The notes beneath the pieces were generated by a model. It was not told where the DNA came from, did not search any database, and saw only the letters and a list, made by a program, of their open reading frames with translations. Both the position numbers and the translations under genes were made by a program. This document shows, piece after piece, positions 5,854-26,312 of a DNA stretch of 64,000 nt (its first letter is position 1; every line of letters begins with the position of its first letter). Location: contig JBNMJK010000004.1 of the NCBI GenBank assembly GCA_050873765.1, positions 2,844 to 66,843 on the forward strand. The letters run 5' to 3'. This stretch comes from Sodaliphilus sp. (GTDB taxonomy: Bacteria; Bacteroidota; Bacteroidia; Bacteroidales; Muribaculaceae).

Positions 5854-5900
5854 AAAAAACGAGCTCAAAGACCGCCAGTGGCCTTTGAGCTTTTATTTTT
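5854..5900. terminator. Intrinsic terminator between convergent genes
   Basis: AGCTCAAAG/CTTTGAGCT stem, A-tract before and T-tract after. Confidence 0.7.
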
Positions 5901-5950: not shown

Positions 5951-6748
5951 CTATGGCTGGAAAAAGTCGCTTAGCCTGAGCTTTGTGACAATAGCCCTGT
6001 GATCCGACAACTGGTCGGGTAGGGTAGTCGGGCAGAAGTGGGGCTTGAATGACTGCGAGGGAGCGTAGGTGAATAGATAGTCGATCTTTCTGTCTGGATT
6101 CAAGGCAGGGAATGTAGGGTCGGTGCCAGAAATGTCGGTCATTGCTGCATGGAATTTGTGAGCGCACATTTCCTCTGGGTAGGCGTTGAAGTCGCCACCG
6201 ATTATAGTAGGCAGGGCAGTGCCTTTAATTTTGCCAATGATGTAATCGGCCTGCAAGCTCCTTGTCTCGGCGCTTTTTACATCGAGATGCGTGCAGGCAA
6301 AAGCGATTTCATGCTTCCCGTCAATTTCAAATTTTCCTAACAGAAGCACCCGTTGCTCCGTATGCTTGGGGTTTGGAAGTTGGAAACATTCCATATTCAA
6401 GCATGGGTGACGCGACAGAATGGCAATGCCATAATAGCCGCCGGCAAAATTAAGCGTTTTGCCAAAATAGCCGAACATGTTGGTTCTTGCTGCCAATGCC
6501 GACACGATGTTGATTCCATTCATCTGTTTCGCATTGGCGCGATTTGTCATCACGTCCACCTCCTGCAGTGCCACAAAGTCGGGGTGGTGAGCATTGATGA
6601 AATCCGCGAGAGAGTCAATCGTCGTCAGGCTGCCGGCACGAATGTTGTAGGTCATCACAACCAGCTCTTTGTCGGCGGCATTAGCCTGAAAACTGCCTGC
6701 CGCTATGAGCAAAAGGCTTAATAACAATAATTTCTTAATATGCTTCAT
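5951..6748 (-). CDS. Endonuclease/exonuclease/phosphatase (EEP) family secreted protein
   Basis: MTYNI, LQEVD, THLD, GGDFNA, IDY, SDH motifs; signal peptide. Confidence 0.9.
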   Translation of the reverse strand: MKHIKKLLLLSLLLIAAGSFQANAADKELVVMTYNIRAGSLTTIDSLADFINAHHPDFVALQEVDVMTNRANAKQMNGINIVSALAARTNMFGYFGKTLNFAGGYYGIAILSRHPCLNMECFQLPNPKHTEQRVLLLGKFEIDGKHEIAFACTHLDVKSAETRSLQADYIIGKIKGTALPTIIGGDFNAYPEEMCAHKFHAAMTDISGTDPTFPALNPDRKIDYLFTYAPSQSFKPHFCPTTLPDQLSDHRAIVTKLRLSDFFQP

Positions 6749-7737
6749 TTTAATGGAGTGATTTGATCATTCAATTTACTATGGTGAAAAACAGCCTGCT
6801 TGCCATTGAAGTGGCCAATATACGAAAAATAATCCGGATCGGCTACGAGTGGGTTAAGAAACCACGTGTAGATGCCTTCCCAATGTGTGGTGTCACCGCT
6901 TTTGACAACGTGATTGCCGATGAGCTTGTGGTACGACTTGCTCCATGAGTTGCCGATAAACACCACATCATCGTCGGTGATGAGGTGATGGTCGCCCAGA
7001 CCGGCTTCGGTCAAAAACGCTGCCGCATAGCAGACTTTCGATTTTTCGATGAATTGATGAAAGTGTGGTGCCGATTTTCGGGTGAACCTATCCACACTGC
7101 CCACCGGAGTCCATCTGGAATATTCACCACCGGGAGTGAGAATCTCTGTTTCTCCTATCATCATCGACTGCATGCCATAATAGCGGGCAATCGTCAGCGG
7201 CTGGCGGTTGAGATAGTGATGGGTGGCCGACACTTGAATACTGTTGCCGCTAATGGTGTAGGTGACAGATTCCGTACAGAATTTTTGGGCGGAATCAGAC
7301 GGATTCAGCAGCGTGTTGTGCACACATACTGTCACGCATTGTGCCTCACCAGAGAAATCAGCCGTTATTCGGTTGCCGTCAACAGATATGGAAACGCTGT
7401 CGGTATGAGCTGATGGCGATCCGTTGGCCAGCAGATGATTGCCACCGGTCCAGCCGGCACCGTCGATTAAAAACGGCCCGATATTGTCGCTTGTGGCCTC
7501 ATTGACCACGGTGGTGTCGATAAGCACACGGCAGAATGTGTAGAGATGGTTAGCCATGCATCGGCGGAACTCATAGCTGATGGTGTGCTGCCCCTCCAAC
7601 TGCGAACTGATACGAAGCAATTCTCCGTCCAAAGCCACGTGGATTGTGGCTTTGGCAGAGGAAACGAATACCGACGACAAAACTAAAATAGCGAGCGCCG
7701 ATTTCAATGCTTTATACTTAAAAATAGAGGCAGGCAT
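6745..7737 (-). CDS. Secreted hypothetical protein, beta-rich
   Basis: 330-aa ORF with signal peptide; start/stop overlaps with both neighbours. Confidence 0.75.
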   Translation of the reverse strand: MPASIFKYKALKSALAILVLSSVFVSSAKATIHVALDGELLRISSQLEGQHTISYEFRRCMANHLYTFCRVLIDTTVVNEATSDNIGPFLIDGAGWTGGNHLLANGSPSAHTDSVSISVDGNRITADFSGEAQCVTVCVHNTLLNPSDSAQKFCTESVTYTISGNSIQVSATHHYLNRQPLTIARYYGMQSMMIGETEILTPGGEYSRWTPVGSVDRFTRKSAPHFHQFIEKSKVCYAAAFLTEAGLGDHHLITDDDVVFIGNSWSKSYHKLIGNHVVKSGDTTHWEGIYTWFLNPLVADPDYFSYIGHFNGKQAVFHHSKLNDQITPLK

Positions 7738-10700
7738 TATTTGATTGTCAATTTTTTGTTGTGCCGCCGGTCAACGATAATCTTGGCCAATTCGTCCATG
7801 ATAGCCTGATTCTTGGCGTTGGGATTGGCAGCCATGTCGATTAGTGCCTTGCTGCCGGTGTAGTAGGCAATGGTGGAAGTGGAGAATACATGGTGGCGGC
7901 GGAAAGCGTTGATGTAGGCCTGCATACGTCCGTAAGAAGAATCTTCTGAGCCGTAAAGCGCTTTCGAGTCACATTCAAATTCCATAGCCATACCAAGGTT
8001 AAGAGCCTCGTCACATGCATCGTCGAGGCGCGAGTCCGGAATTTTCTTGTCGAAGAAATGGTTGGGCTGATAGTATGCAATGTCGAATCCCAGCTCTTTC
8101 CATCGGTCGTAGCCTCTTGCCCTGTAATACGGAATCCAGATGAATTCAAGTCCTTTGGCGTGTACGGCAGGCGTAATGTGCTTCACCAGGTCTTTTGTGT
8201 GGCAGATGTCTTCGTCCACCCAATAGAGGCCAGCCAATTCCAGATTTTTGTATCCGGCTTTGGCGAAACGCTCCACCAATTCATTGATAAACCAGATGGC
8301 TGCTGCTGAGCGGTCGCCATAGTTGTCGAAAATCAGCGTGCGGTTGCCCAGTTTGCCCCAGTCGGTCTGGCCGGCGATAGGGGTGGGTATGGTCAGCACG
8401 ATTTTATGTTTGAATCCAGGGGCGCCGATAGAGTCGATTTGCTGACTGATGCACTTGTCGATAGCGTCGAGTGATTTGCCTTTTTCAAACAGGCGGTCGA
8501 GATACCATTCCCATTCCTGCTTGCGGGCGTTTTTCGCGCCATATTGCGGAACGAAAGTGTGTCCCATGCCATCGTTGAAGTCGAGAAATAGGAATCCGTC
8601 GAATAGCCAGTCTCTGTGCCCGTCGGCGAACTTGTGGGTTACGTAGGGCAGGAACTGGTCGGCGGTCCAGTCGATTCGCTTAGCTCCGCCTTGATAGATC
8701 AAAGCCAAGTCGCGGATCGTGTTTTTTGGATATTCCTGAATCGTGTCGCATTTCATCACCTCGACAGGCTCTACTGGCGCAAGAATATTTTCAACTTTCC
8801 ATTCGAGTGCCTTGCCCACTTTCAACTGCGCAGCGCTTAATGTGGAGGCTGGGTCGGCTGAATGGCGCAATTGCACGGTGTAGGAGCCTTTATCTGTCAG
8901 CCAGGCAGAAGACTGCTCATTGAACGAGGCGATGTCTCTTGCGCTGAACGAAAGCTTTACGGTTTCGCTCTCTCCAGGCGAGAGCAGCTTGGTCTTGGTA
9001 AAAGCTTTGAGCTCAGCTTCCGGCTTGGTAATGGAGTCTGTTTTTTGATTTGACTTCACGTAGAGCTGAACCACCTCGCGGCCCGCAACGCTTCCAGTGT
9101 TTTTTACATTCACGCTTACCGTCCACTTGTCACCTGTTTTTTTCACTGTGGGCTTGGAGTAGGCGAAATTCGTATAGCTCAAGCCATAGCCGAAAGGAAA
9201 CGACACATGGCGGTGTGAGGTGGAGAAATAGCGGTAGCCCACCCAGATGTCTTCCTCGTAGTCCGTGTAGTCGAAGTTGCGTCCCTCGGTCTGGCCAACG
9301 TATGGATAATTTTTAGCCGAAGGAATGTCGGTGTACTTCATCGGGAATGTCATAGGCAGCCTGCCAGAAGGATTTACTTTGCCAGAAATCACGTCGGCAA
9401 CGGCGTTTCCACATTCCTGACCGGGAAACCAAGCCATGAGTATGCCATCGGCGTTCCATTTCCAGGATTCGGTTTCGATTACACCGCATACATTAAGAAC
9501 GACCACCATTTTTTTGCCCTGCTTGCGACATTCGGCGCCCACTTTGTTGATTAGCGCCGTTTCTTCAGCAGTGAGGTTGAAGTCGTTTTCCACGGTTCTG
9601 TCGGAAGTCTCACCTGAGCCGCGCCCTATCACCACCACAGCAATGTCGCTTTTGCCTATTTCTTCCGCCACGAGAGCCTCGTGGCCAGTGATGTCCATTT
9701 CCGGAGCTACAGTGCGGTGGTATGAAATCTTTTGCCAATCGGGGCAGTCGGGGTATTTGTCGTCGAGAACGGTTCTGAAATCAACGTATTTACGGTAGAT
9801 TTCAGCCACTCTGCCGTTGATGGCGAACCCGGCGTTCTCAAGGCCGGTGGAAATGTCGATGACGTATGGCTTGTTGACATTCGACGAGCCAGTACCGCCA
9901 GCTATTGACTTATATGCGGTGGCTCCGAACAGCGCGATTTTTGAGCCCGCTTTCAGAGGCAGCGGGTTGTTGTCGTTTTTCAGAAGCACCATTGATTCCG
10001 ACGCAATCTTTCTTGATGCCGCAGCATTTTGGGCAAGTGCTGGAGTGGTGAAGTGCCACCCCTTGGCAGTTATGGATTTCGCCACAAGGCGGAGCACGTC
10101 TTTCACGCATGCGTTGATGGCATCGGTCGAAACTTTTCCGGTGTTGACAGCCTCTATGATTTCTTGCACGATTTCCTCATCGCCGGGCATAATCAAGCCG
10201 CAGCGGGCATTGAGCAGATCGGCAGTAGGGCGGCGCACGGTCCAGTCGGTAAGCATCAGACCGTTGTATTTCCACTCGTTGCGGAGCAGCCGTATCATTA
10301 AGTCTTTGTTAGTCTGTGTGAATTGTCCGGCTATTTTATTGTACGACCCCATGATAGTCCATGGGTTGGCTTCCTTTACACAAATCTCGAATGCCCTGAG
10401 ATAGATTTCACGGAGAGCACGCTGAGAAATTCTTGCATCATTGAATTTTTTGCCAGTTTGCTGGTTGTTTGCCACAAAATGCTTGAGGCTTGTGCCTATG
10501 CCACATTCTTGAATGGCTCTGATGATGGCGGCAGCCATTTTGCCTGTGAGCAGAGGATCTTCTGAGAAATATTCAAAGTTGCGTCCACAAAGGGGATTCC
10601 TCATAATGTTTATTCCGGGAGTCAAGACGATGTCCACGCCATAAGCCTTCGCTTCGTCGGCCATGCATCTGCCTTGCCAGTCGGCGGCATTGACGTCCCA

Positions 10701-11111
10701 TGTGGCGGCAAGAGCCGTTGTAGAAGGGAAGCATGTGCAGAATGTGCGCTGTCCGTTGGAAGTGCTTGATGCTGTGGAGGTGGCCACGGGAATACCCTGG
10801 CTGTCGTATTTGATCGTAATGTTCTCGGATGGCACCGGGTTAATCCTCACGCCCACCGGGCCGTCAGCCAGATTGATGGAAGGAATGCCTAATGATGGAA
10901 TTTCATACGTCCACCCGGCGGCACCTGCCACGAGATGGCTCATGTCGTCGGTTTTGCCATCGGTTCCTACGAGAATTCTTGCCTTCTGCTCCAAGGTCAT
11001 TTTGGAGACAATCGCATCGATGTCGTTCTCTGTTATAAGCTCTGTGGCATTCAGAGAGGCGAACGAGGCAGCAATTGCCAATAAAGCCAATGAGAGGAAG
11101 CGTTTTGTCAT
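7737..11111 (-). CDS. GH3 beta-glycosidase fused to C-terminal DUF4855 domain
   Basis: ADGPVGVR, GRNFEYFSEDP, KHFVAN, LTDW nucleophile, Fn3 domain; then DLALIYQGG..WLFDGFLFL..YYQPNHFF (DUF4855-like). Confidence 0.85.
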   Translation of the reverse strand: MTKRFLSLALLAIAASFASLNATELITENDIDAIVSKMTLEQKARILVGTDGKTDDMSHLVAGAAGWTYEIPSLGIPSINLADGPVGVRINPVPSENITIKYDSQGIPVATSTASSTSNGQRTFCTCFPSTTALAATWDVNAADWQGRCMADEAKAYGVDIVLTPGINIMRNPLCGRNFEYFSEDPLLTGKMAAAIIRAIQECGIGTSLKHFVANNQQTGKKFNDARISQRALREIYLRAFEICVKEANPWTIMGSYNKIAGQFTQTNKDLMIRLLRNEWKYNGLMLTDWTVRRPTADLLNARCGLIMPGDEEIVQEIIEAVNTGKVSTDAINACVKDVLRLVAKSITAKGWHFTTPALAQNAAASRKIASESMVLLKNDNNPLPLKAGSKIALFGATAYKSIAGGTGSSNVNKPYVIDISTGLENAGFAINGRVAEIYRKYVDFRTVLDDKYPDCPDWQKISYHRTVAPEMDITGHEALVAEEIGKSDIAVVVIGRGSGETSDRTVENDFNLTAEETALINKVGAECRKQGKKMVVVLNVCGVIETESWKWNADGILMAWFPGQECGNAVADVISGKVNPSGRLPMTFPMKYTDIPSAKNYPYVGQTEGRNFDYTDYEEDIWVGYRYFSTSHRHVSFPFGYGLSYTNFAYSKPTVKKTGDKWTVSVNVKNTGSVAGREVVQLYVKSNQKTDSITKPEAELKAFTKTKLLSPGESETVKLSFSARDIASFNEQSSAWLTDKGSYTVQLRHSADPASTLSAAQLKVGKALEWKVENILAPVEPVEVMKCDTIQEYPKNTIRDLALIYQGGAKRIDWTADQFLPYVTHKFADGHRDWLFDGFLFLDFNDGMGHTFVPQYGAKNARKQEWEWYLDRLFEKGKSLDAIDKCISQQIDSIGAPGFKHKIVLTIPTPIAGQTDWGKLGNRTLIFDNYGDRSAAAIWFINELVERFAKAGYKNLELAGLYWVDEDICHTKDLVKHITPAVHAKGLEFIWIPYYRARGYDRWKELGFDIAYYQPNHFFDKKIPDSRLDDACDEALNLGMAMEFECDSKALYGSEDSSYGRMQAYINAFRRHHVFSTSTIAYYTGSKALIDMAANPNAKNQAIMDELAKIIVDRRHNKKLTIK

Positions 11112-11138
11112 ATTGATGTGAAATTAGGATTGTAACTC

Positions 11139-11201
11139 AAAAAAGAAAAGAAATGGGAAAGGCGCCCAAAAAACAGTTTCGGTGATGCGCCAGTCCCATT
11201 C
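11139..11201 (-). terminator. Terminator-like hairpin inside the PUL
   Basis: AATGGGA..GGCGC/GCGCC..TCCCATT stem followed by a T-rich run on the minus strand. Confidence 0.6.
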
Positions 11202-11223
11202 GATTGATAATAGAATATTCGTG

Positions 11224-12507
11224 TTATTTAACAATAACCTTAGTAGCCTTGCCGTTGACCATGACAATGTAGATACCAGCATCGCAGCTGATTTCGCCGT
11301 TGCCAGTAGCCACGAGAGCGCCAGCGGTAGTGTAAACGTTGGCAACGCCTTCGCCCTTCACAACGATCTTGCCATTGGTGCCGTAAACCACAGCATCGTT
11401 TTCAGCCTCAACACTCTTTACTGAAGAGCTCTGAACGGTGAACTCATATTTTGCGATGTAAGCGTTAGGAACGTACTCGTAGATATAGACAGAGTTTTCT
11501 GTTGCAGGCTCCACAGAGAGGTGGCAACCATAGAAAGCGTTGTTTTTGTACAGCACGTCAGAACCATCTTCCTTAGCCTCAGCATATTTAGTAGCGATGC
11601 GTACATCTTTGTCAGCGTCTTCGTTGGCAGGAGTGTCCTTCACTTTCAAAGATGATACAGTAAAGCCGTCGGCATTGTTTGAGCCAGAAGGATAAACGAT
11701 GTATTTCTTGCCGTTGAGCTCGAAAATCTCGAATCCTGAGCAACCGTTGTGGTTAGGTGTCACATAGAAGCCGGTTGGAACCCAGTTGTCGTCGTTGTCG
11801 AGAGTCAGACGATAGATGGAGTTTCCATTACCAGAAGTAGTGCTTGTGATTTGCACATTAGGCGAAAGCAGCGCAATAGACTCTGTGTCGAATTTGTAAG
11901 CGCAAATGGTGTGGGTAGTAGTGAAAGTGCCGCCTACCTTGATGGCCTCGTTTTGTACGAAGTTGTAGGGATAGGTGTCTTCAACTGCTTGCGCACCGTT
12001 CACAATAGGCACTTCAATCATGTTGGGCTGCCACATGGTGCCCATAAAGAGAACGCCACCGTCTTTCGACATCACATCGCCAGCCACGTGTCCCCAGAAG
12101 TCGGCACGTCCGCCAGGAATACCTGCGATTTCAAAATCTTTAACTTCACCTGCAGGAGTGATAATTCTCACACCTTTATTCACATTGTAGTTTGTGTTGA
12201 ACTCGCCAGTGCGGACAATGATGTTGCCGGCGTCGTCGCGTGTGATGTTAGTGCCTTTACCAGATTCCAACTCACCGATTTTGCCTGTCTCGTTCCAGAT
12301 TTCAATTTTCTGGGTGTCCTTGTTCTGAAGGTAGAATTTGCCATTAACGGCTACACCTTGGCGTGCAGAAGTGTGCAATGGAGCCACGTCGGTGTTCATC
12401 CATAAACATTTAAGACTGCGATCCATTGAGGATTTTGCAGTAGCTGACGGAGCGTAAACTGCCATGCTGGCAATCAAAGCTGCTCCCATGAGTAAATTTT
12501 TTTTCAT
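11224..12507 (-). CDS. Secreted hypothetical protein with T9SS-like C-terminal sorting domain
   Basis: Signal peptide; C-terminus VYTTAG..GIYIV..GKATKVIVK. Confidence 0.8.
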   Translation of the reverse strand: MKKNLLMGAALIASMAVYAPSATAKSSMDRSLKCLWMNTDVAPLHTSARQGVAVNGKFYLQNKDTQKIEIWNETGKIGELESGKGTNITRDDAGNIIVRTGEFNTNYNVNKGVRIITPAGEVKDFEIAGIPGGRADFWGHVAGDVMSKDGGVLFMGTMWQPNMIEVPIVNGAQAVEDTYPYNFVQNEAIKVGGTFTTTHTICAYKFDTESIALLSPNVQITSTTSGNGNSIYRLTLDNDDNWVPTGFYVTPNHNGCSGFEIFELNGKKYIVYPSGSNNADGFTVSSLKVKDTPANEDADKDVRIATKYAEAKEDGSDVLYKNNAFYGCHLSVEPATENSVYIYEYVPNAYIAKYEFTVQSSSVKSVEAENDAVVYGTNGKIVVKGEGVANVYTTAGALVATGNGEISCDAGIYIVMVNGKATKVIVK

Positions 12508-12539
12508 TTTGTCTGTTTTTTAAATAGTTATTAAAATAG

Positions 12540-14237
12540 TTATTTGATAGGTAATTTATAAACCTCTTTATCTGTAGCGATGAAATATATTCCAGCCGAC
12601 AAACCTGATGTAGGCATCTCGATTGTTCCAGCCTTGCATTTCACCGTTTTCAGGCAAACGCCCTGGCAATTAATTAGGCGAATGTTTGAGTCGTAGGGAA
12701 TAGTTATTCTGACATTTGCCCCAGGCTCTACCGTCACGCTCATTTTGCTGTCGGCGGTGGGCTGGAATCCTACGCTGGAATTGTCGGTGACTGTGATGCG
12801 GATTTTGGCAGTGTGGCTGCCACGGCTTGCCTCAATCTGATAAGCTCCTGCCTTGCTGAAAGTGAATGTGCCGTTCTCAATGCTCACGTTGCTCTCGGGT
12901 GAGCAAGAGAAAGTGCAGCCAGCCAGATTGGCATCGATGAGGTATCCGTCCTTGTTGTAGCCATAAACTGTTGGCTTGTAGGCAGAGCCTACGGCAATAG
13001 TCTTTGCATAGTCGGCAAATGCGATTGATGCCACCTCATTGTCGAGGGTCTTCGGTGCAGCCAAAAACCACCCGTTTCTCACTTTTCGGAGTTGTCCGTC
13101 GCTTGGACGGTTGAACACGCCAAGAGTTTCGGAATAAATGGTCGATGATCCGCCACCATCAAAGTTGATGGCCGTCACGCAACCCACATTCTGCATCATG
13201 CTTGCCAGTTCCTTCGATGTGATGCCGTCGGATATACCGGCGTTGAACTTGTCGCCGTCCACCACCATCATCACCATTTTGGTTCCAGTCTTGTCAATAC
13301 CAACGGCGGTGCGGGGGCGGCGTGACGACAGGTGGTCGAGCACTTTGTCGGTGTTGAGAATGTTGCCGTCTTGCAGAATCATCGGGCAGCCGCCGCTCAT
13401 CTCCTGAATTTGTTCTATGGTCTTGCCATTGAGCGTGAATGTGGGGGTAATCTCGATGATGTCGCCCACTTTCAGCTTTTTCAAAGGATCCATATACCAC
13501 GACGCATTCGCCGAGAGCACAATTCCACCTGCGGGAATCGACATATTGCCGACACCTGATTGTGGTGCCGCTGTGACTTTGAACTGCGTGGTGCCATAGG
13601 CCGCCAGCCCCTTGCCGAGGCTTACGGCCGCCACTTCCACGCCATTGGCAGAGGTGCCCGTAGATGCGCCGTATTTGTCGGTGAAGATGACAAAGTCGTT
13701 CGACTCTCGCGGCGTGTTGACGCTCTTTGCCGACATTTGCCCTGTGGCAGTTGACGTCAGTTTGAATGTGGAGTAGAATTGTCCGAAGTTGAGACGCTTT
13801 TCGCTGTCGTAGCCCACGGAATACCACCCGGTTGATGTTCTGGCGGTTTTATAAATTTCCGAACCTACAATCGTTGAGCCGATAGGGCCTGTGCCAGAAA
13901 ATAAGTCGGCATTCACGCCGGCAATGTATTCATAATTTTTATCGCTGTTATTGCTGACCATCTGAGGAACGGTCTGGTTTGTTTTCAAATTATTGTTGCC
14001 GCAGATAGTCTTAACCTGCACAAGCGGATTGCTGAGGTCGGTGGTCGTGAAAAACACACGTTGGCGCTGGTCGCCAGTCAGGTCGAGTATCGTTAAGGAA
14101 GTGCCCGGCCCGATTTGGCAATGCTTCACGGTGTCGATAGCAAACGCTTTGCCCATCACAGTCCATGTGGAAGCCTGGCTGGCAAACGCTGTCTGGATTG
14201 AAGTTGCTAATAATATTACAAACGCGATCGATTTCAT
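12540..14237 (-). CDS. Phosphodiester glycosidase (NAGPA-like) with T9SS-like C-terminal domain
   Basis: GVNADLF, RPRTAVG, VVDG, NFDGGGSS motifs; C-terminal GIYFI..YKLPIK. Confidence 0.85.
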   Translation of the reverse strand: MKSIAFVILLATSIQTAFASQASTWTVMGKAFAIDTVKHCQIGPGTSLTILDLTGDQRQRVFFTTTDLSNPLVQVKTICGNNNLKTNQTVPQMVSNNSDKNYEYIAGVNADLFSGTGPIGSTIVGSEIYKTARTSTGWYSVGYDSEKRLNFGQFYSTFKLTSTATGQMSAKSVNTPRESNDFVIFTDKYGASTGTSANGVEVAAVSLGKGLAAYGTTQFKVTAAPQSGVGNMSIPAGGIVLSANASWYMDPLKKLKVGDIIEITPTFTLNGKTIEQIQEMSGGCPMILQDGNILNTDKVLDHLSSRRPRTAVGIDKTGTKMVMMVVDGDKFNAGISDGITSKELASMMQNVGCVTAINFDGGGSSTIYSETLGVFNRPSDGQLRKVRNGWFLAAPKTLDNEVASIAFADYAKTIAVGSAYKPTVYGYNKDGYLIDANLAGCTFSCSPESNVSIENGTFTFSKAGAYQIEASRGSHTAKIRITVTDNSSVGFQPTADSKMSVTVEPGANVRITIPYDSNIRLINCQGVCLKTVKCKAGTIEMPTSGLSAGIYFIATDKEVYKLPIK

Positions 14238-14239
14238 GT

Positions 14240-16273: not shown

Positions 16274-16288
16274 CGTCTCTGTTCTTGA

Positions 16289-18049: not shown

Positions 18050-18064
18050 TGCTTTTGATGTTTT

Positions 18065-21000
18065 TTAGAATTCAACGTTTAGTCCGAAAACGAATGTCTT
18101 GTTAAGCGGGTAGAGGCTTGCGCCAGAGCCGATGCTGCTTTCTGGGTCGAAACCCTGGTAGAAGTTGTCCTTGATTGTGAACACGTTTTGCGCGCTGGCA
18201 TACACACGAAGTTTTGAGATGTTGACTTTGCGTGTGATTGCAGCAGGAAGCGTATAGCCGACAACCAAGTTTTTCAGACGGCAGTAGGCTCCGCTCTTTA
18301 CCCAGAACGATGAAATCATGTTGTTAGGGTTGGTAGCATTCGGGTCTTCAAGCAGGCGAGGGAACTTGGCGTTCTGGTTTTCCTCGGTCCAGTAGTCGAG
18401 CTGGTACTTGTAGATGGTGTAGTTGCCGCACAGCGCGCGTGCGCCGGCACCAGAGTAGTACACATCTTTCTTGCCCACACCCTGGAAGAATGCCGAGAAG
18501 TCGAGCCCTTTCCATTGCAGACCGAGCGTGAGACCGAACTCATAGCGTGGGGTAGGGTTGCCGATGATAGTGCGGTCGTAGCTGTCGATTTTGCCGTCGG
18601 GCACACCATCAGGGCCAGAGATGTCTTTGTATTTGATATCGCCAGGAGCCACGTTGGCTTTATTGCCGCCATATACTGGAGATGCTTCAATTTCTTCGCG
18701 CGAGGTGAAGAATCCGTCGGCCACATATCCATACCAAGAGCCGTAAGGCTTGCCCTCAGTTGTCAGTCGAGTGCCGCTTTTGTATTCATTGCCATAGAGG
18801 TTTGTCACCTTGTTCTTCACATCGGAGATATTACCCTTAATGTAGTAGTCAACGTTGCCCACTCTGTCTTGCCATGCAATAGAGAATTCCCAGCCGTTGT
18901 TTCTCATCGAACCGGCATTTTCCCAAGGCGATGTCATTGACACGAACAATGGCACAGGAAACTGCTGAAGCATGTTGTTGATGTTACGCACGTAGTAGTC
19001 GAAGCTACCGCTCAGCCTGTTGTTCAGGAAGGCGTAGTCGATACCGACATCAAACTGGTGAGATTTCTCCCAAGTGATGTTTGGATTGGCGAGTACGGTC
19101 TGTGCCACACCCGATGAAAATTCTTTATCGAACCAGTAACCATAGGCTGGAGAGCTACCGATTGCAGCAGAGTAAGGATAGTAGCTGTTGATCGACTGGT
19201 TACCAAGAGTACCGTACGACACTCTCAGCTTGAAGTTGCTCATCACATCTTTTGCTGATTCCCAGAAAGGCTCCTCAGAGATTCTCCAACCTGCTGAAAC
19301 CGAAGGGAAGAAACCCCAGCGCTGGCTGCCGATGAATCGCGATGTGCCGTCGTAACGGCCGTTCACTTCAAGGAGATAGCGGTCTTTGAAAGCGTAGTTT
19401 ACCCTGAACAGATAAGAGAGCATCGCCCATGAGTTACGCGCGCTTGAGTTGGTCTGTGTGGTGGCGTCACCATTGATGAGGTCTTCATAACCGTCGTAAT
19501 AGTAATTCTTTCGTCCGGCGGTCAGATAGGTGTAGTTGAGTTCCTCGGATTGGAAACCGAGCAGCACTTTCAGGTAGTTTTTACCAAAAGTGTTCTCGTA
19601 TGTGCCTGTGAGATCGTACTGCTTGCGCACCGTCTTTGTGCGCTGCTCCGACATAGAGGAACCGCTGGTGGGGAACGAACCCTTGAACACACCGTTCTCG
19701 TAGGTGTCGTATGGCTTTGCAAACGCTTTCACCTCTCCATCGTTGCGCTTCCAAGTGTAGGAGCCGAAGATTGTGAGACCCTTGAAAGGCGTAAGCGTGA
19801 GGGTAGGCTTAACAATGTATTCAGGTGCAACGCTGTTGGAAGTGCAGCCGCAGCGCACCATAGCAATCGGGTTGGTGCCGTTGATGCCGTAGCCATAAGT
19901 GCCGTCGGCATTGATGCCCGACATGATAGGTGTCATCGTCAGGGCTTTACCGATGATATTGGTAGGCGAGTCTAATACGGGCGATGTGGCGTTGGCTTGG
20001 CGTACACTTGCGTCAACACCAAGTTTCATCCACTTGTTGATCTTCATGTCGGTGTTGAGGCGCAGTGATGTGCGCGAGAATTTGTTGTTGTCGATCAAAC
20101 CGTCTTGCGTGTAGTAGCCGGCAGAAGCATAAATTTTCAAGTACTCGCTGCCGCCGCTCACGCCGATTGAATAGTTTTGAACAAGTGCGGAACTTTTAAT
20201 CACCTCTTTTTTCCAGTCGGTGTCGTAATAGTTAGTCTGGTCCACGCCACCGTTCTTGTATATTTCAATCACATCGGTGTAAAGAGGCTGCTGCAAAGCG
20301 TTTTTGCGTGCAGCGTCCACGGCTTGCATATATTCGATAGCCGATGTAGGCTCAGGCAAGGTGGTAGGGGTGTTGATACCTACGTAGCCGTTGAAAGTGA
20401 CGGTGGGCTTGCCTTCAGCGCCACGCTTGGTGGTGACGAGAATCACACCATTTGATGCGCGCGAACCATAGATTGATGCGGAAGCAGCGTCTTTCAGCAC
20501 CGATATCGACTCAATGCTGTTGAGGTCGATACGGTTGAAGTCGCCTTCCACTCCATCGATAAGAATCAGTGGCGAGGTGGAAGAGTTGAGTGAGCCCAAA
20601 CCTCTGAGCCGCAGGGAAGCCTGGTCGTTGCCTGGCTGACCTGAAGTCTGCATGGCAGTCAGACCTGGCACAATACCTTGAAGCGCGGCAGAACCGTTGG
20701 AAACGTTGGCGCGCAGAATGTCTTTGCTGCTGATGCTTTGCACGGAACCGGTGAGGTTGATTTTTTTCTGTGATCCGAATCCAACGACCACCACATCTTC
20801 GAGGGCTGTGGCCGACTGATGCATGACAATGTCTTGGTTGAGACCCTTTTTGGCATCAAGCGTAACAGGCTCAGTGCCGACATAGGTGAATTTCAACTTT
20901 GTTGGAGAACTAAGGCTGATGGTGTATCTGCCTTCCGAGTCTGTGACATTGAGTGTCTTGCCGCCTTTTCCGGTGATGGCGACACCTATCATGGGCTCGC

Positions 21001-21111
21001 CCTTCTCATCCACAACCTTGCCCTGCACGGTGAATGCTTGGGCAAGAGCCGTCTGGGAGACAGAGGCTAAGGCAAGAGCCAAAAATGCACTTAAAAACTA
21101 TTCAGTCTCAT
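18065..21111 (-). CDS. susC: SusC/RagA TonB-dependent transporter; natural ATG (21111) is out of frame by 1 nt, in-frame TTG at 21082
   Basis: Carboxypeptidase-like N-domain, SISVLKDAASASIYGSRASNGVILVTTK plug, C-terminal FGLNVEF. Confidence 0.93.
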
Positions 21112-21203
21112 TTTTTGGGTTTGAAGTTTATTAGTTATGTAAAATGATGTATTTGTCAGTTAGGAAAGTTATGTGAATTACGTTTGGAAGCTGTGGCTCT
21201 GCC

Positions 21204-22409
21204 TCAACAGTCAAACGCTCGTTTTCGTGCATTTGCGCATGCTCCAATCAGTCCCACCTGGTCGCCAAGCTGCGAAAGCTCGATTTTGGTGTCTTCGTTG
21301 ACAAGATTGAGAGAATAGCGCCTTACAAGGGTCTTTATTGGCTGAAGAATGTAGTCGCCCGTCATCGACAAGCTGCCGCCGATCACCACTTTCTCAGGGT
21401 TGAAAATGTTGATCAGTCCGGCAATCCATCTGCCGAGCACTTGTCCCACTTCCTCCACCAGTTCTATGCATAAGAGGTCTTCGTGGTTTACGGCATCTAT
21501 AATTTTGTCGAGTGACACGTCGCCCTCAGTCTTGAATTCCTTTGCGAGAATTGAATTTTCACCGGCTTCGAGCCTGGCGATTAGCTTGCGGTGCAGCGCG
21601 CTGCCAGATGCTTCCGTCTCGAGGCACCCTTTTTTGCCGCAGTGGCACATCACCTCATTGTTGAATGTGACCATGTGCCCGAACTCACCGGCAAATCCCG
21701 ATTTGCCTCTGTAGATTTTTCCGTCGAGAATCATACCGATGCCAAGTCCCCAGCCTACGTTCACGAAAATCACATTCTTTTCGTTTGAGCAGTTGCCGAA
21801 CGTATATTCGCCCAGGGTCATCGCCCTTGTGTCGTTTTCGATGCAGGCCGATATTCCGATTTTTCTGGTCAGCACATCAGCCAGCGATTGCTCCTCGAAA
21901 TTAAACCGGCTGTAGCTGTAGCCCGATTGAGGGTTTACGCGTCCGGAAATGTTGAGGTTTATTTTAATAATGTTTTCTTTGTCGATGCTCAGATTAGAAA
22001 TAAAAGTACGAATGATGTGGCAGAGACGGTCGAGCCCTTCGGGAGTGTTCTCGAAATGGTAGGCAATGTCGATCTGCTTTTCCACCATGTCGCCGCAAAA
22101 GTCAATGAGGCCAATGCTCACCGAATCGTTGTTGATGTCCACTCCAGCGAAATAGCAAGAGTCGGGGTTGAGCCCATAGAGCACAGGATGGCGTCCGCCG
22201 TTGGTTTCCCGCTTGCCCCGCTCTTTTACGATACCTATGCAGGAAAGCTCCTCCACAAGTTTGGTGATTGTGGGAATACTGAGCCCAAGGGATTTCGCCA
22301 AGTCGGGGAGCGTGTAAAATCCATTTTTCATAAAAAAGGAAATCACGCGCTTCTTCAACATCGCATTTTTGGTGCCTTTTCCTATCTCTTTTATTAAGGT
22401 GGAAATCAT
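21204..22409 (-). CDS. ROK-family transcriptional repressor
   Basis: N-terminal HTH, ENDTRA, GFAGEFGH, CHCGKKGCLET. Confidence 0.92.
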   Translation of the reverse strand: MISTLIKEIGKGTKNAMLKKRVISFFMKNGFYTLPDLAKSLGLSIPTITKLVEELSCIGIVKERGKRETNGGRHPVLYGLNPDSCYFAGVDINNDSVSIGLIDFCGDMVEKQIDIAYHFENTPEGLDRLCHIIRTFISNLSIDKENIIKINLNISGRVNPQSGYSYSRFNFEEQSLADVLTRKIGISACIENDTRAMTLGEYTFGNCSNEKNVIFVNVGWGLGIGMILDGKIYRGKSGFAGEFGHMVTFNNEVMCHCGKKGCLETEASGSALHRKLIARLEAGENSILAKEFKTEGDVSLDKIIDAVNHEDLLCIELVEEVGQVLGRWIAGLINIFNPEKVVIGGSLSMTGDYILQPIKTLVRRYSLNLVNEDTKIELSQLGDQVGLIGACANARKRAFDC

Positions 22410-22554
22410 TTTATTTGATTAAAAAGCTAATAGTCAATTTCATTTCTTGTGGCAAAGTAAGCCAGAAAAATCCGTATAAACAAATTTTTTAATTAAAAAT
22501 ATCGCAATTAATAAAATTTTTTCGTAACCCTTGGTGCATATAATAAAAATATTT

Positions 22555-22562
22555 ACCTTTGT
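22555..22562 (+). promoter_or_regulatory. Bacteroidetes sigma70 -7 box for the DUF4434 operon
   Basis: TACCTTTG matches TAnnTTTG, 29 nt before ATG 22591; perfect palindrome TTTTTAATTAAAAA at 22486-22499 is a possible ROK operator. Confidence 0.55.
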
Positions 22563-22590
22563 GAAACCATAAACAAATAAATTTAAAAGA

Positions 22591-23667
22591 ATGCTTAACA
22601 GAAGAATCTTCTTAAAAAGCTTGACTGCATTGGGGCTTGCGGGGCTGGTGGCTCCGCAGATGATGGCTGGCGGCAGCCGCCGGCGCTCTGGCGGACTGGA
22701 GCCGCTTGCCCACAGTGGCAATGCGCTGAGAATCACTGGAACATTCTTAGACGAGATTTCTCACGACATTCCTCATCAGAATTGGGGCGAGAAAGAATGG
22801 GACGCTGATTTCCGCTACATGAAATCGATTGGGATAGACACTGTGGTGATGATCAGTAGTGGCTATCGCAAATTCATCACATATCCGTCGGCTTATCTTA
22901 TAGGTAAAGGGTGCTATAGGCCTTCAGTCGATTTGCTCGACATGTTTCTGCGCCTGTCGGACCGCTATGGAATGAAGTTCTATTTCGGCCTGTATGACTC
23001 TGGCGTGTATTGGGACACTGGCGACATGACGATGGAGATGGAGCATAACCGCTTCGTGGTGGACGAGGTGTGGAAAAACTATGGCTCAAAGCATAAGAGC
23101 TTTGGTGGCTGGTATGTGAGCACCGAAATATCGAGAAAGACCAAGGGCGCTGTGGCTGCATTCCACACACTTGGCAAGCAGTGCAAGGACGTGTCGGGTG
23201 GCTTGCCCACGTTCATCTCACCGTGGATCGACGGCAAAAAGGCTGTGATGGCCGCGTCGTCGAGCCTGACCAAGGAAGCCGGCGTGTCGGTGGAGGAGCA
23301 TGAGCGGGAGTGGAACGAGATTTTTGCGGGCATACATGACGTGATTGACGCTTGCGCCTTCCAAGATGGGCATATCGATTACGACGAACTCGACGCTTTC
23401 TTCGAGGTCAACAAGAAACTTGCCGACCGGTATGGCATCAAATGCTGGACAAATGCAGAGACTTTCGACCGTGATATGCCTATCAAATTTCTCCCTATCA
23501 AATTCGAGAAGCTGCGCATGAAGCTCGAGGCGGCTAAGCGGGCGGGGTATGACAAGGCCATCACCTTTGAATTCTCGCATTTTATGAGCCCGCAATCCGC
23601 TTATCTGCAGGCCGGGCATCTTTTCGACCGGTATTGTGAGTATTTTGGTATAGACGATAAATTTTAA
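22591..23667 (+). CDS. DUF4434-family putative glycoside hydrolase with Tat-like signal
   Basis: NRRIFLKS twin-arginine motif; ITGTFLDEISHDIPHQNWG, ETFDRD. Confidence 0.85.
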   Translation: MLNRRIFLKSLTALGLAGLVAPQMMAGGSRRRSGGLEPLAHSGNALRITGTFLDEISHDIPHQNWGEKEWDADFRYMKSIGIDTVVMISSGYRKFITYPSAYLIGKGCYRPSVDLLDMFLRLSDRYGMKFYFGLYDSGVYWDTGDMTMEMEHNRFVVDEVWKNYGSKHKSFGGWYVSTEISRKTKGAVAAFHTLGKQCKDVSGGLPTFISPWIDGKKAVMAASSSLTKEAGVSVEEHEREWNEIFAGIHDVIDACAFQDGHIDYDELDAFFEVNKKLADRYGIKCWTNAETFDRDMPIKFLPIKFEKLRMKLEAAKRAGYDKAITFEFSHFMSPQSAYLQAGHLFDRYCEYFGIDDKF

Positions 23668-23684
23668 TCTAAAGAATAATAATT

Positions 23685-25097
23685 ATGATTGTTGGAAAAG
23701 CAAACTTGGCCTACGTCACGTTTATTGCCGTTGTGGCGGCTGTCGGCGGCTTCCTGTTTGGCTACGACACGGCTGTCATTTCCGGAACTATCGATGTGGT
23801 CGGACGTCAGTTCTCTCTCGACGCATTGCAGAAAGGGTGGTATGTGGGCTGTGCATTGGTAGGAAGCATCTGCGGTGTGGCTGTGGCAGGAATGATAGGC
23901 GATTATCTGGGTCGCAAGAAGGCCATGATATTGTCGGCGCTGTTGTTCACGGTGTCGGCTGTTGGCTGCGCGGTGTCGGCATCGTTCAGTGAGCTTGTGG
24001 CATATCGGATAGTAGGAGGCGTAGGCATCGGAATGGTGTCGATTATTTCTCCGCTGTATATATCAGAAGTGTCGGTGCCAGAGCACAGAGGGCGGCTGGT
24101 TTCGCTCTATCAGTTGGCCATAACGATAGGCTTCCTTGGGGCTTACATCGCTAATTACGCCCTGCTTCAGTTTGAGCATACGGCAGCTCTCTCGCAAATC
24201 CACCTCGTGGCCACCGTGTTTGGCACAGAGTCGTGGCGTGGAATGCTTGGAATGGAAACGCTGCCCGCTGCATTGTTCCTTGTGATCATATTCTTTATTC
24301 CGGAATCGCCAAGATGGCTCGTGCTTAAAAGGCGTGAGGCAGAGGCTGCCGCCATAGTCGGTAAAATATACCTTAACGATAAGGACGCGTCGCAGGAGCT
24401 TTCAAACATACGCTCGGCTATCGGAAATGAAGAGCATGTGGAATGGCGTGAGCTTCTTCGCCCCGGTGTCAGAAAGATGGTGGCAGTAGGGGTGGCGATA
24501 GCCATTCTTGGCCAGTTTATGGGCGTGAACGCGGTGCTCTACTATGGTCCGTCGATATTCACCGACAGCGGTCTGTCGGGTGGTGACTCCCTGTTTTATC
24601 AGGTGCTCGTGGGCACTGTGAATATGCTCACCACGGTTCTTGCATTGCTCATCATAGATAAGGTGGGACGTAAAAAACTTGTATATTACGGTGTGGGAGG
24701 AATGATAGCGTCGCTCGTTCTCATATCCGCCTACTTTGCTTTTGGAGCGTCGGTAGGGCTGTCGCCATTGTTGCTGCTGGTGTTTTTCCTGGCCTACATA
24801 TTCTGCTGCGCCATTTCGATATGCGTGGTAGTGTGGGTGCTGCTGTCGGAGATGTATCCAACGAAAGTGAGAGGGTTGGCCATGTCGATTGCCGGATTCT
24901 CGCTGTGGATAGGCACATATCTGATAGGCCAGCTCACGCCATGGATGCTTTTGCGGCTTACTCCGGTAGGCACCTTCCTGCTGTTTGCAGTGATGTGTGT
25001 TCCGTATATTGTCATTGTCCACAAATGTGTTCCGGAGACCAAGGGACTGAGCCTTGAAGAAATTGAGAGAATTACTGAGAAAGAAAACAAACATTAA
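23685..25097 (+). CDS. Sugar porter family MFS transporter
   Basis: GGFLFGYDTAVISG, GRKK loop, PESPRWL, PETKGLSLEEI. Confidence 0.93.
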   Translation: MIVGKANLAYVTFIAVVAAVGGFLFGYDTAVISGTIDVVGRQFSLDALQKGWYVGCALVGSICGVAVAGMIGDYLGRKKAMILSALLFTVSAVGCAVSASFSELVAYRIVGGVGIGMVSIISPLYISEVSVPEHRGRLVSLYQLAITIGFLGAYIANYALLQFEHTAALSQIHLVATVFGTESWRGMLGMETLPAALFLVIIFFIPESPRWLVLKRREAEAAAIVGKIYLNDKDASQELSNIRSAIGNEEHVEWRELLRPGVRKMVAVGVAIAILGQFMGVNAVLYYGPSIFTDSGLSGGDSLFYQVLVGTVNMLTTVLALLIIDKVGRKKLVYYGVGGMIASLVLISAYFAFGASVGLSPLLLLVFFLAYIFCCAISICVVVWVLLSEMYPTKVRGLAMSIAGFSLWIGTYLIGQLTPWMLLRLTPVGTFLLFAVMCVPYIVIVHKCVPETKGLSLEEIERITEKENKH

Positions 25098-25109
25098 AAA
25101 TCATATAAA

Positions 25110-26312
25110 GTGATGGATAAAAAAATAGAGGAGCTTGCGAATCTATATAAGTCGGAACTGCTTGGCAATGTGTTGCCATTTTGGCTCGACAAGTCGCAGG
25201 ACAAAGAGTGTGGCGGTTATTTCTCGTGTCTTGACCGTTATGGAAACGTTTATGACACAGATAAGTTTGTGTGGATGCAGGGACGTGAGGTTTGGCTGTT
25301 CTCAATGCTCTACAACAAACTTGAGAAGCGCGAAGAATGGCTTGAATGTGCGGTGAGAGGCGGTGAGTTTTTGAAGAAGCACGGGCACGACGGCAAATTC
25401 AACTGGTATTTTTCGCTCGACAGAGCCGGCAATCCATTGGTTGAGCCCTACAATATATTCTCCTACACGTTTGCCACGATTGCTTTCGGGCAGTTGGCGC
25501 TTGCCACCGGCAACAAGGAATATGAAGATATAGCACGCAGCACATTCGACATCATACTGTCGAAAAAAGAAAATCCGAAGGGCAAGTGGAACAAACTACA
25601 TTCGGGCACGCGCGACATGAAGAATTTCGCTTTGCCGATGATTCTCTGCAACGTGGCTTTGGAGATAGAGCATATGATTGAGCCGGAATATCTGAATCAG
25701 ACAATCGACACTTGCCTGCATGAGGTGCTTGATGTGTTCTACCGTCCGGAACTTGGCCTGGTGGTGGAGAATGTCACCACCGACAATCAGCTGTGCGATT
25801 CGTTTGAGGGACGCCACATGAATCCCGGACACGCTATTGAAGCGATGTGGTTCTGCATGGACCTCGGAGAGCGTCTGGGCAGAAAAGACATCATCGACAA
25901 GGCTGTGGATATAACCCTGAATATGATTAACTATGGTTGGGACAAGGAATTTGGCGGTATATTCTATTTTATGGACCGCAAAGGCTGTCCTCCACAGGAG
26001 CTGGAATGGGATCAGAAACTTTGGTGGGTGCATATAGAGACGTTGATTTCCCTGCTGAAAGGTTATCAGCTCACCGGCCGCAAAGAATGTTGGCAATGGT
26101 TTGAGAAAGTGCACGACTATGCATGGACGCATTTCAAGGACTCGGAAGCTCCTGAGTGGTTTGGCTATCTGAATCGCAGGGGAGAGGTGTTGTTGCCTCT
26201 CAAGGGCGGAAAATGGAAGGGCTGCTTCCATGTGCCCAGAGGCTTGTATCAATGCTGGCAGACGCTGGAGAAAATTGCACACCCCGACTCATCGGTTATT
26301 ATTGACAAGTAA
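25110..26312 (+). CDS. AGE-family N-acyl-D-glucosamine 2-epimerase
   Basis: WMQGREVW, NPGHAIEAMWF, KLWWVH, KGCFHVPR; GTG start. Confidence 0.92.
   Translation: MMDKKIEELANLYKSELLGNVLPFWLDKSQDKECGGYFSCLDRYGNVYDTDKFVWMQGREVWLFSMLYNKLEKREEWLECAVRGGEFLKKHGHDGKFNWYFSLDRAGNPLVEPYNIFSYTFATIAFGQLALATGNKEYEDIARSTFDIILSKKENPKGKWNKLHSGTRDMKNFALPMILCNVALEIEHMIEPEYLNQTIDTCLHEVLDVFYRPELGLVVENVTTDNQLCDSFEGRHMNPGHAIEAMWFCMDLGERLGRKDIIDKAVDITLNMINYGWDKEFGGIFYFMDRKGCPPQELEWDQKLWWVHIETLISLLKGYQLTGRKECWQWFEKVHDYAWTHFKDSEAPEWFGYLNRRGEVLLPLKGGKWKGCFHVPRGLYQCWQTLEKIAHPDSSVIIDK

Follow-up and report, generated by a model that had tools for sequence, protein, structure and literature searches.

A polysaccharide utilization locus with predicted phosphodiester-cleaving enzymes beside a DUF4434-MFS-AGE module in a Muribaculaceae genome

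A stretch of 64,000 nucleotides from a Sodaliphilus sp. genome (Muribaculaceae; contig JBNMJK010000004.1), referred to here as the window, contains a Sus-like operon that lies beside a divergent operon for a DUF4434 protein, a sugar-porter-family MFS transporter and an N-acyl-D-glucosamine 2-epimerase (AGE). The first operon codes for a SusC/SusD pair, a NAGPA-like phosphodiester glycosidase, an EEP phosphoesterase and further secreted proteins. From protein families, predicted folds and gene neighborhoods we propose that positions 5862-26312 form one catabolic system for a phosphodiester- and amino-sugar-containing glycan, the favored substrate being a cell-envelope phosphoglycopolymer of other bacteria; taken as a whole, we give this proposal slightly less than an even chance. 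The functional unity of the locus and its phosphodiester theme are well supported.

Organization of the locus

The source genome measures 2.52 Mb and is 99.75% complete. Pfam and NCBIfam profiles run against the window proteins bore out the gene positions and every domain call of a first-pass annotation of this DNA. The cluster extends from a strong terminator (5862-5891) to the end of the AGE gene (26312), and its features are as follows:

5862..5891, minus strand: intrinsic-terminator-like hairpin (12-bp stem and T tract) closing the susC-to-EEP operon
5951..6748, minus strand: secreted EEP phosphoesterase, 265 aa (PF03372, 65.6 bits against a cut-off of 24.5)
6745..7737, minus strand: secreted 330-aa protein of an unnamed family, without a Pfam family
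7737..11111, minus strand: secreted fusion of GH3, Fn3-like and DUF4855 domains, 1124 aa (PF00933, PF01915, PF14310; PF16147 at 367 bits)
11224..12507, minus strand: secreted 427-aa protein of an unnamed family, candidate surface glycan-binding protein (TIGR04183, 17.4 bits)
12540..14237, minus strand: NAGPA-like phosphodiester glycosidase, 565 aa, candidate surface depolymerase (PF09992, 103 bits against a cut-off of 25)
14240..16273, minus strand: DUF6259 protein, 677 aa (Pfam, 349 bits)
16289..18049, minus strand: SusD-like outer-membrane glycan-binding protein (Pfam SusD_RagB and SusD-like_3)
18065..21082 from a TTG, with an ATG at 21111, minus strand: SusC-like TonB-dependent transporter (Pfam Plug and CarbopepD_reg_2)
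21204..22409, minus strand: ROK-family regulator with an N-terminal winged helix-turn-helix (Pfam; NagC/Mlc-like by NCBIfam)
22410..22590, no strand: AT-rich control region between the divergent ROK and DUF4434 genes, with a -7 box of Bacteroides type, TACCTTTG, at 22554-22561 ahead of DUF4434
22591..23667, plus strand: DUF4434 TIM-barrel protein with a twin-arginine signal (Pfam, 272 bits)
23685..25097, plus strand: sugar-porter-family MFS transporter of the inner membrane (Pfam, NCBIfam)
25110..26312, plus strand: AGE of the NanE-II type of Bacteroides (NF052547, 712.2 bits against an equivalog cut-off of 600, full length)

Nine genes stand head to tail on the minus strand, in the order ROK, SusC, SusD, DUF6259, NAGPA-like, 427-aa, GH3-Fn3-DUF4855, 330-aa and EEP, and the three genes of the DUF4434, MFS and AGE proteins are divergent from ROK on the plus strand. 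ROK had earlier been placed as divergent from the DUF4434 operon; it does occupy that position, but not that one only, as it is also the head-to-tail neighbor directly upstream of susC. The gap between susC and susD is 15 nt, no gap from susC to EEP exceeds 112 nt, and overlaps of 1 and 4 nt join the last three genes. This tight spacing and the 12-bp-stem terminator after EEP indicate that susC to EEP reads as one operon. With adjacent susC and susD, co-oriented genes for degradative enzymes and a terminator after the last of these, the locus is a Sus-like polysaccharide utilization locus (PUL). All of the periplasmic and surface candidates carry signal peptides.

Conservation across Bacteroidales

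Seven variant loci were compared; neighboring genes were annotated in six of them (for the metagenome contig L097 from a precomputed Pfam list), the exception being the Alistipes locus L033. In Bacteroides salyersiae DSM 18765 the genes run DUF4434, MFS, EEP (on the opposite strand), extracytoplasmic function (ECF) sigma factor, anti-sigma factor, SusC, SusD, DUF6259, NAGPA, 427-aa protein, GH3, SGNH esterase, two DUF4855 genes, 330-aa protein and glycerophosphodiesterase (GDPD), with identities to the window proteins of 72% for SusC, 81% for SusD, 52% for DUF6259, 42% for NAGPA, 54% for the 427-aa protein, 58% for GH3 and 43% for the 330-aa protein. A Bacteroidales metagenome-assembled genome (JBDKUH01; locus L098) repeats the gene order of the operon from SusC to the 330-aa protein. 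For these two relatives together, identity is 71-72% for SusC, 77-81% for SusD (77% in L098) and 41-62% for the others. B. nordii has DUF4434, MFS, EEP, SusC and SusD arranged as in B. salyersiae, and its DUF6259 gene lies about 10 kb from DUF4434 if both are on the same contig, as the coordinates suggest. A genome labeled B. thetaiotaomicron (G001) has DUF4434-MFS-AGE followed by SusC, SusD, DUF5018, SIS, a ROK kinase, GH2, GH20, a 754-aa orphan, DUF6259, fn3-NAGPA, SGNH esterase, DUF4855, GH89, MFS, NagA, NagB and Gfo/Idh/MocA oxidoreductases. In the Alistipes locus, ROK-DUF4434-MFS-AGE lies beside a 330-aa homologue and two DUF4855 genes, and the contig L097 has DUF4434, MFS, DUF4434, DUF6259, a 330-aa homologue and an esterase, without SusC/D.

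That the same families recur as neighbors in Muribaculaceae, Bacteroides and Alistipes makes the arrangement more than chance. An initial survey of 10 kb on either side had found NAGPA and DUF6259 beside DUF4434 only in the closest relative, a picture of chance juxtaposition of the two halves that was overturned by linkage at 10-20 kb in Bacteroides. The earlier suggestion that the locus is one system is thus supported by conserved synteny in the three groups, and it belongs to a conserved, uncharacterized locus family, whose best-known member is B. thetaiotaomicron BT0433-BT0454.

Between the window and L095 and L098, SusC and SusD (71-81%) are far more conserved than the operon enzymes (41-62%), the reverse of the usual pattern. 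This suggests either that the ligand imposes a very strong constraint or that the transporter pair was transferred separately and more recently.

Predicted phosphodiester-cleaving enzymes and probable surface proteins

The NAGPA-like protein has an intact DGGGS loop (residues 360-364); this loop is reported to be invariant from bacteria to man and to be needed for recognition of N-acetylglucosamine (GlcNAc)-1-phosphate (2026 structural study, PMC13474241). The EEP protein displays the motifs TYN33-35, LQE61-63, THLD153-156, GGDFN184-188 and SDH248-250. On the pattern of the superfamily motifs, we take N35, E63, H154/D156, D186/N188 and D249/H250 to be its metal-binding and catalytic residues. 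A search of the PDB found no solved relative of it at E<=0.01.

The start of the EEP gene overlaps the stop of the 330-aa gene by 4 nt, which would make them a translationally coupled pair, and the 330-aa family is fused to an EEP domain in about 30 other protein clusters (P0259-P0286 and P0304 carry PF03372). Homologues of the 330-aa protein occur in L097, L098, L092, L019, L033 and B. salyersiae, and it is a core member of this locus type. Neither it nor the 427-aa protein has a Pfam family even at E<=5, and a PDB sequence search with the 330-aa protein gave no match. Orthologues of the 427-aa protein occupy the matching position in B. salyersiae (54%) and L098 (53%).

Several phosphoesterase types appear across the set of variants, and each locus examined in detail has at least one. 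DUF4855 is fused to GDPD in a protein cluster (P0222) and in the B. thetaiotaomicron-type locus L092, a standalone GDPD gene ends the B. salyersiae operon, and a calcineurin-like phosphoesterase is known from within B. thetaiotaomicron PUL9. Three independent gene fusions, GH3-DUF4855 in the window, DUF4855-GDPD and 330-aa-EEP, thus connect families of this locus type.

The C-termini of the NAGPA-like and 427-aa proteins weakly resemble sorting tails of the type IX secretion system (T9SS). The L098 orthologue of NAGPA has a T9SS sorting domain on record, the genome encodes the T9SS translocon protein SprA (TIGR04189, 2725 bits), and no lipoprotein cysteine was found in any of the locus enzymes. 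Together these features make the two proteins likely surface components, and the NAGPA-like protein is probably located on the cell surface.

Glycoside-hydrolase-like proteins

The predicted model of the DUF6259 protein (mean predicted local distance difference test, pLDDT, 91.3) consists of a beta-sandwich, a (beta/alpha)8 barrel and a second beta-sandwich. Its top Foldseek matches are to glycoside hydrolase (GH) families GH129 and GH36 (FpGalNase), at template-modeling (TM) scores of 0.60-0.66 and E-values of about 2e-26 to 1e-21, followed by more GH36 members (TM about 0.5), GH31 and GH101. The matched GH129 enzymes are a 3,6-anhydro-D-galactosidase and the alpha-N-acetylgalactosaminidase NagBb, and those of GH36 are alpha-galactosidases and the blood-group galactosaminidase, so that the closest fold matches are retaining alpha-glycosidases. 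Searches of the PDB by single sequence and by profile found no sequence relative, and identity in the fold alignments is 11-13%. The invariant acidic residues of the family include D447, E497, E498 and E501, and their spacing would suit a GH129-like Asp/Glu pair. We therefore predict from the model that DUF6259 is an alpha-glycosidase of a new family.

The distribution of DUF6259 is patchy: 28 of 251 Muribaculaceae genomes have it, as do 3 of the 13 from this genus and 5 of 301 in a sample spread evenly over the order. This makes the operon an accessory trait, with a tendency to settle beside the core module. DUF6259 adjoins NagB/PIG-L genes in L100 and is grouped with GH20, GH89, NagA, NagB and a ROK kinase in the B. 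thetaiotaomicron-like locus. In Parabacteroides bouchesdurhonensis (L003, 10001-16046) a lone DUF6259 gene precedes ApbE, kdgK, a 2-keto-3-deoxy-6-phosphogluconate aldolase and uxaC, genes of hexuronate catabolism, without SusC/D or a phosphoesterase; the system proposed here does not explain this context.

The GH3 part of the fusion protein contains both GH3 domains, with the nucleophile motif LTDW at 287-290. The DUF4855 part (residues 800-1110, approximately) is modeled as a TIM barrel at pLDDT 94. Its fold matches are weak (TM 0.4-0.47; GH18 chitinase, GH84, GlgE and the DUF4434 structure 4h41) and a PDB sequence search gave no match; DUF4855 is GH-like by its model, at a strength of fold match too low for an activity to be read from it.

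The DUF4434-MFS-AGE module and the sialic-acid question

The DUF4434 protein is about 80% identical, by eye from an alignment, to PDB 4h41 (BT0435 of B. thetaiotaomicron), and is predicted to be a periplasmic glycosidase. Its start (22591-22620) encodes a twin-arginine (Tat) signal with RRIFLK at residues 4-9; such an export signal is unusual in a protein that resembles a TIM-barrel glycosidase and has no known cofactor. In 80 species surveyed within 10 kb of DUF4434, the MFS gene follows in 66, AGE is found in 45 and ROK in 32. The ROK protein is the counterpart of BT0433, the ROK 'NanR' of a predicted NanR regulon that further comprises BT0434, BT0435, BT0436 (MFS), BT0437 (NanE-II, AGE) and BT0438 (GH89) (Ravcheev et al. 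2013). The window AGE exceeds the NCBIfam equivalog cut-off for N-acyl-D-glucosamine 2-epimerases, and epimerase activity is predicted from this family membership.

A search of the 99.75%-complete genome for neuraminate lyase (nanA, TIGR00683) gave no match at E<=0.001, and the only BNR_2 (sialidase) match in it is marginal, at 30 bits. The first-pass annotation had reported that neither a sialidase nor a neuraminate lyase is present in the locus; this holds, and for the lyase it extends to the genome. Without nanA, sialic acid is not the source of N-acetylmannosamine (ManNAc), and the epimerase does not serve sialic-acid catabolism. A sialic-acid pathway built on a nanLET-type operon is thus rejected.

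Two secreted proteins are encoded just downstream of AGE on the plus strand, a 324-aa orphan (26492-27466) and a type I phosphodiesterase/nucleotide pyrophosphatase (ENPP; 28166-29362, PF01663, 262 bits). We rejected both as locus members: neither turned up in the 7 kb that follow AGE in the 94-95%-identical relative L007, or close to DUF4434 in any of the other 79 species surveyed.

Comparison with known systems

Like the window, the predicted NanR regulon of B. thetaiotaomicron (BT0433-BT0454, covering PUL8 and PUL9) has ROK, DUF4434 (BT0435), a sugar-porter-type MFS and AGE. The B. thetaiotaomicron-type locus L092, which matches the published annotations of BT0438, BT0442, BT0446 and BT0447, continues with SusC/D and then DUF4855, GH3, a 330-aa homologue, a phosphodiesterase and an esterase. 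The B. thetaiotaomicron system differs in that its SusC/D proteins are only about 29-33% identical to the window pair, GDPD fused to DUF4855 stands in place of EEP, a DUF1735 / F5-8 type C surface protein replaces the T9SS-tailed NAGPA and 427-aa proteins, and GH89 is added; in the B. thetaiotaomicron-like genome DUF6259 and NAGPA are in a second locus. An inversion between the AGE paralogues BT0437 and BT0453 has been described as reshuffling PUL8 and PUL9 (2025 preprint). Contig C9 of the genome labeled B. thetaiotaomicron shows another arrangement, with an AraC-type regulator, an esterase, DUF4434, MFS and AGE, then SusC.

The operon shared with B. salyersiae and L098 differs in its regulation, these two having an ECF sigma/anti-sigma pair and an N-terminally longer SusC (with an STN domain on record in L098) rather than ROK, and in having separate GH3 and DUF4855 genes, the latter duplicated, where the window has a fusion. 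B. salyersiae in addition has DUF4434-MFS and EEP directly upstream of the operon, an extra SGNH esterase, a terminal GDPD and no AGE next to MFS, and the last gene of L098, where the stretch examined stops, codes for a PF00756 esterase.

In the nanLET/NanR sialic-acid system of B. fragilis, a ROK repressor reportedly lies beside an operon for an AGE-type ManNAc epimerase and an MFS transporter (Brigham et al. 2009). The window likewise has ROK next to AGE and MFS, but its genome lacks neuraminate lyase, a Tat-exported DUF4434 TIM barrel stands in the place of this enzyme, and its transporter is of the sugar-porter rather than the sialate family. In its working the locus resembles a Sus-type system to which an amino-sugar module of the NanR/AGE type has been joined and, given the failed search for the lyase, it is not a sialic-acid system.

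With the vertebrate uncovering enzyme NAGPA, the window protein has PF09992 and the DGGGS loop in common. The sequence matches are marginal (E 1e-3 to 1e-2). The bacterial protein, whose activity and sugar specificity are predictions, is extended at the N-terminus by about 250 aa and probably ends in a T9SS tail, without the EGF stalk. The EEP protein invites comparison with BT3783 and BT2630, EEP-fold sugar phosphatases of yeast-mannan loci (Cuskin et al. 2015), in being a secreted EEP-fold phosphoesterase inside a PUL. It differs in having no match to 4C1R or 3MPR at E<=0.01, in the lack of mannosidases in its locus and in its coupling, and elsewhere fusion, to the 330-aa orphan domain. The DUF6259 model shares its three-domain architecture with the GH129/GH36 enzymes NagBb, ZgGH129 and FpGalNase, but there is no relation at the sequence level.

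The substrate and alternative explanations

Across the variants, the enzyme set comprises a predicted N-acetylhexosamine-1-phosphodiester glycosidase, phosphoesterases of the EEP, GDPD and calcineurin types, SGNH and CE2 esterases, a beta-glucosidase-type GH3, the alpha-glycosidase-like DUF6259, GH89, GH20, NagA, NagB and a ManNAc epimerase. Teichoic acids consist of polyol-phosphate chains with ester-linked D-alanine and alpha- or beta-linked glucose or GlcNAc side groups, and wall teichoic acid is attached via ManNAc-beta-1,4-GlcNAc-1-phosphate. Set against this composition, the enzymes fit wall teichoic and lipoteichoic acids best. Plausible candidates are therefore wall teichoic or lipoteichoic acid together with its ManNAc-GlcNAc-1-phosphate linkage unit, and capsules or cell-wall polysaccharides with phosphate bridges. 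The first-pass annotation had proposed a phosphodiester glycan with an N-acetylhexosamine part, which is supported by the fusions to phosphodiesterases, the DGGGS loop, the alpha-glycosidase-like fold of DUF6259 and the absence of the lyase; the more specific targets that it named, teichoic-acid linkage units or ManNAc/GlcNAc-phosphate capsules, are compatible with the evidence and we favor them.

In the course that we envisage, the T9SS-displayed NAGPA-like enzyme and the 427-aa protein would bind the polymer at the cell surface and cut its glycosyl-1-phosphate bonds, and SusC/SusD would take in the fragments. In the periplasm, DUF6259, with its alpha-glycosidase fold, and GH3-DUF4855, as a beta-glucosidase joined to a TIM-barrel hydrolase, would strip sugars, the coupled 330-aa/EEP pair would remove phosphate esters, and Tat-exported DUF4434 would free the last monosaccharide, possibly ManNAc. 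The sugar porter would import this monosaccharide and AGE, going by its family assignment, would turn ManNAc into GlcNAc, with ROK repressing both operons until the amino sugar appears.

A number of observations weigh against this proposal. The window contains no GDPD by Pfam, and hence lacks the mark of GlpQ-type teichoic-acid degradation. The best solved relatives of the GH3 part are beta-glucosidases (E 1e-177) and its type is not that of NagZ, which speaks against a pure N-acetylhexosamine-phosphate polymer. The T9SS tails are weak matches, at 17 bits (cut-off 27) to Por_Secre_tail for the NAGPA-like protein and, for the 427-aa protein, below the TIGR04183 cut-off of 23. Footprinting for a ROK operator, by comparison of 14 divergent ROK/DUF4434 control regions, yielded only AT-rich words and a Bacteroides-specific TTTATTTAATAAA element; nor did a motif common to these regions and the susC leader emerge convincingly. 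The start of susC is frameshifted, as described below. In Alistipes and B. thetaiotaomicron, DUF4855 loci include proteins of the DUF1735 type, one that is characteristic of N-glycan loci. Work on in vivo induction reportedly used mice colonized by B. thetaiotaomicron alone; if the mice were mono-associated, other bacteria would not be needed as a source. Related B. thetaiotaomicron operons are reported to be induced in vivo (cited in PMC6989115), and by carbon limitation via BT4338 with no added substrate (PMC6989115).

That the system instead targets a phosphorylated glycoconjugate of host or diet is unlikely. Candidates of this kind would be GlcNAc-phosphate-capped or phosphorylated N-glycans, glycosylphosphatidylinositol anchors, plant or fungal inositol-phosphoceramide head groups, or phosphoglycerol-decorated beta-glucans. 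In the literature, the SusC protein BT0439 was detected on human-milk oligosaccharides and galacto-oligosaccharides, and the DUF1735 / F5-8 type C proteins of DUF4855 loci, the occurrence of DUF6259 beside PIG-L/NagB and beside hexuronate genes, and the beta-glucosidase type of GH3 would all be in keeping with such a substrate. However, carbon limitation alone may account for the in vivo induction, and among the annotated neighbors in six of the seven variant loci there was no GH92, GH38, GH76 or GH125 alpha-mannosidase, no GH18 and no alpha-glucuronidase, which weakens the yeast-mannan, N-glycan and inositol-phosphoceramide alternatives. Eukaryotic glycans are not known to contain ManNAc residues, so that AGE would be left unexplained. 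Yeast mannan or phosphomannan in particular was rejected, given the lack of mannosidase families in these loci and an EEP protein unrelated to BT3783 by sequence.

It is quite improbable that in this strain the operon has been turned off or is degenerating, with this copy importing nothing. Its basis is a one-base frameshift that parts susC from its ATG and signal peptide. The ATG at 21111 is one base out of frame (ATG AGA CTG AAT AGT TTT TAA) and meets a stop after six codons; in frame, it would supply a normal signal peptide. The susC frame opens at TTG 21082 only, giving a short signal without a positive charge. Between the ATG and the susC frame lie T runs at 21097-21093 and 21085-21081 (5 and 5), and in the relative L007 (94-95% identical) these have lengths of 7 and 4 and the gene, which reads MRLNSFFKCILALALATVSQTALA, is in frame from the ATG. 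On the other side, the remaining ten genes and their motifs are all intact, and the frameshift may be a real inactivation, a slippage-based switch or a homopolymer error of the assembly; that both homopolymers differ between the window and L007 would suit slippage-prone tracts.

More improbable still, the cluster could consist of two unrelated neighbors, an ordinary operon for a beta-glucoside glycan and a general NanR-type module scavenging ManNAc/GlcNAc. More than 588 species have the DUF4434-MFS-AGE module, at an identity of about 73%, and in most cases no DUF6259, NAGPA or DUF4855 gene lies within 10 kb of it; as most of these species lack the operon, the module is not dedicated to it, a further count against our proposal. 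DUF6259 is absent from 32 of 50 genomes with the module, and in other genomes the next genes after it often encode a SusC/D pair only about 30% identical to that of the window. Yet the two halves are repeatedly adjacent, or linked at about 10-20 kb: in Muribaculaceae, in four or more Bacteroides species and in Alistipes. In L097, which has no SusC/D, DUF4434-MFS-DUF4434 is followed immediately by DUF6259 and the 330-aa family.

Significance

A large part of the Gram-positive cell wall consists of teichoic acids and related phosphate-bridged polymers. A system of gut Bacteroidales that uses them as food is not known to us, and none was found in the literature; nor did we find there a functional study of DUF4434, DUF4855, DUF6259 or a PUL phosphodiester glycosidase. 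In a more far-reaching version of our proposal, which is possible but doubtful, this would be the first recognized Bacteroidales system to use teichoic acids of neighboring bacteria, or other envelope polymers of theirs with phosphate bridges. It would draw on several unassigned enzyme families: DUF6259 as a new alpha-glycosidase, DUF4855 and the 330-aa protein as phosphodiesterase partners, and DUF4434 as a periplasmic beta-N-acetylmannosaminidase feeding ManNAc to AGE. If true, this version would also explain why Bacteroidales without sialate lyase keep a 'NanR regulon'.

This locus type adjoins DUF4434-MFS-AGE, which is among the most conserved unexplained modules of Bacteroidales. Identification of its substrate would allow activities to be assigned to five or more orphan protein families, would clarify the predicted NanR regulon in species unable to use sialic acid, and could reveal a cross-feeding route on dead gut bacteria.

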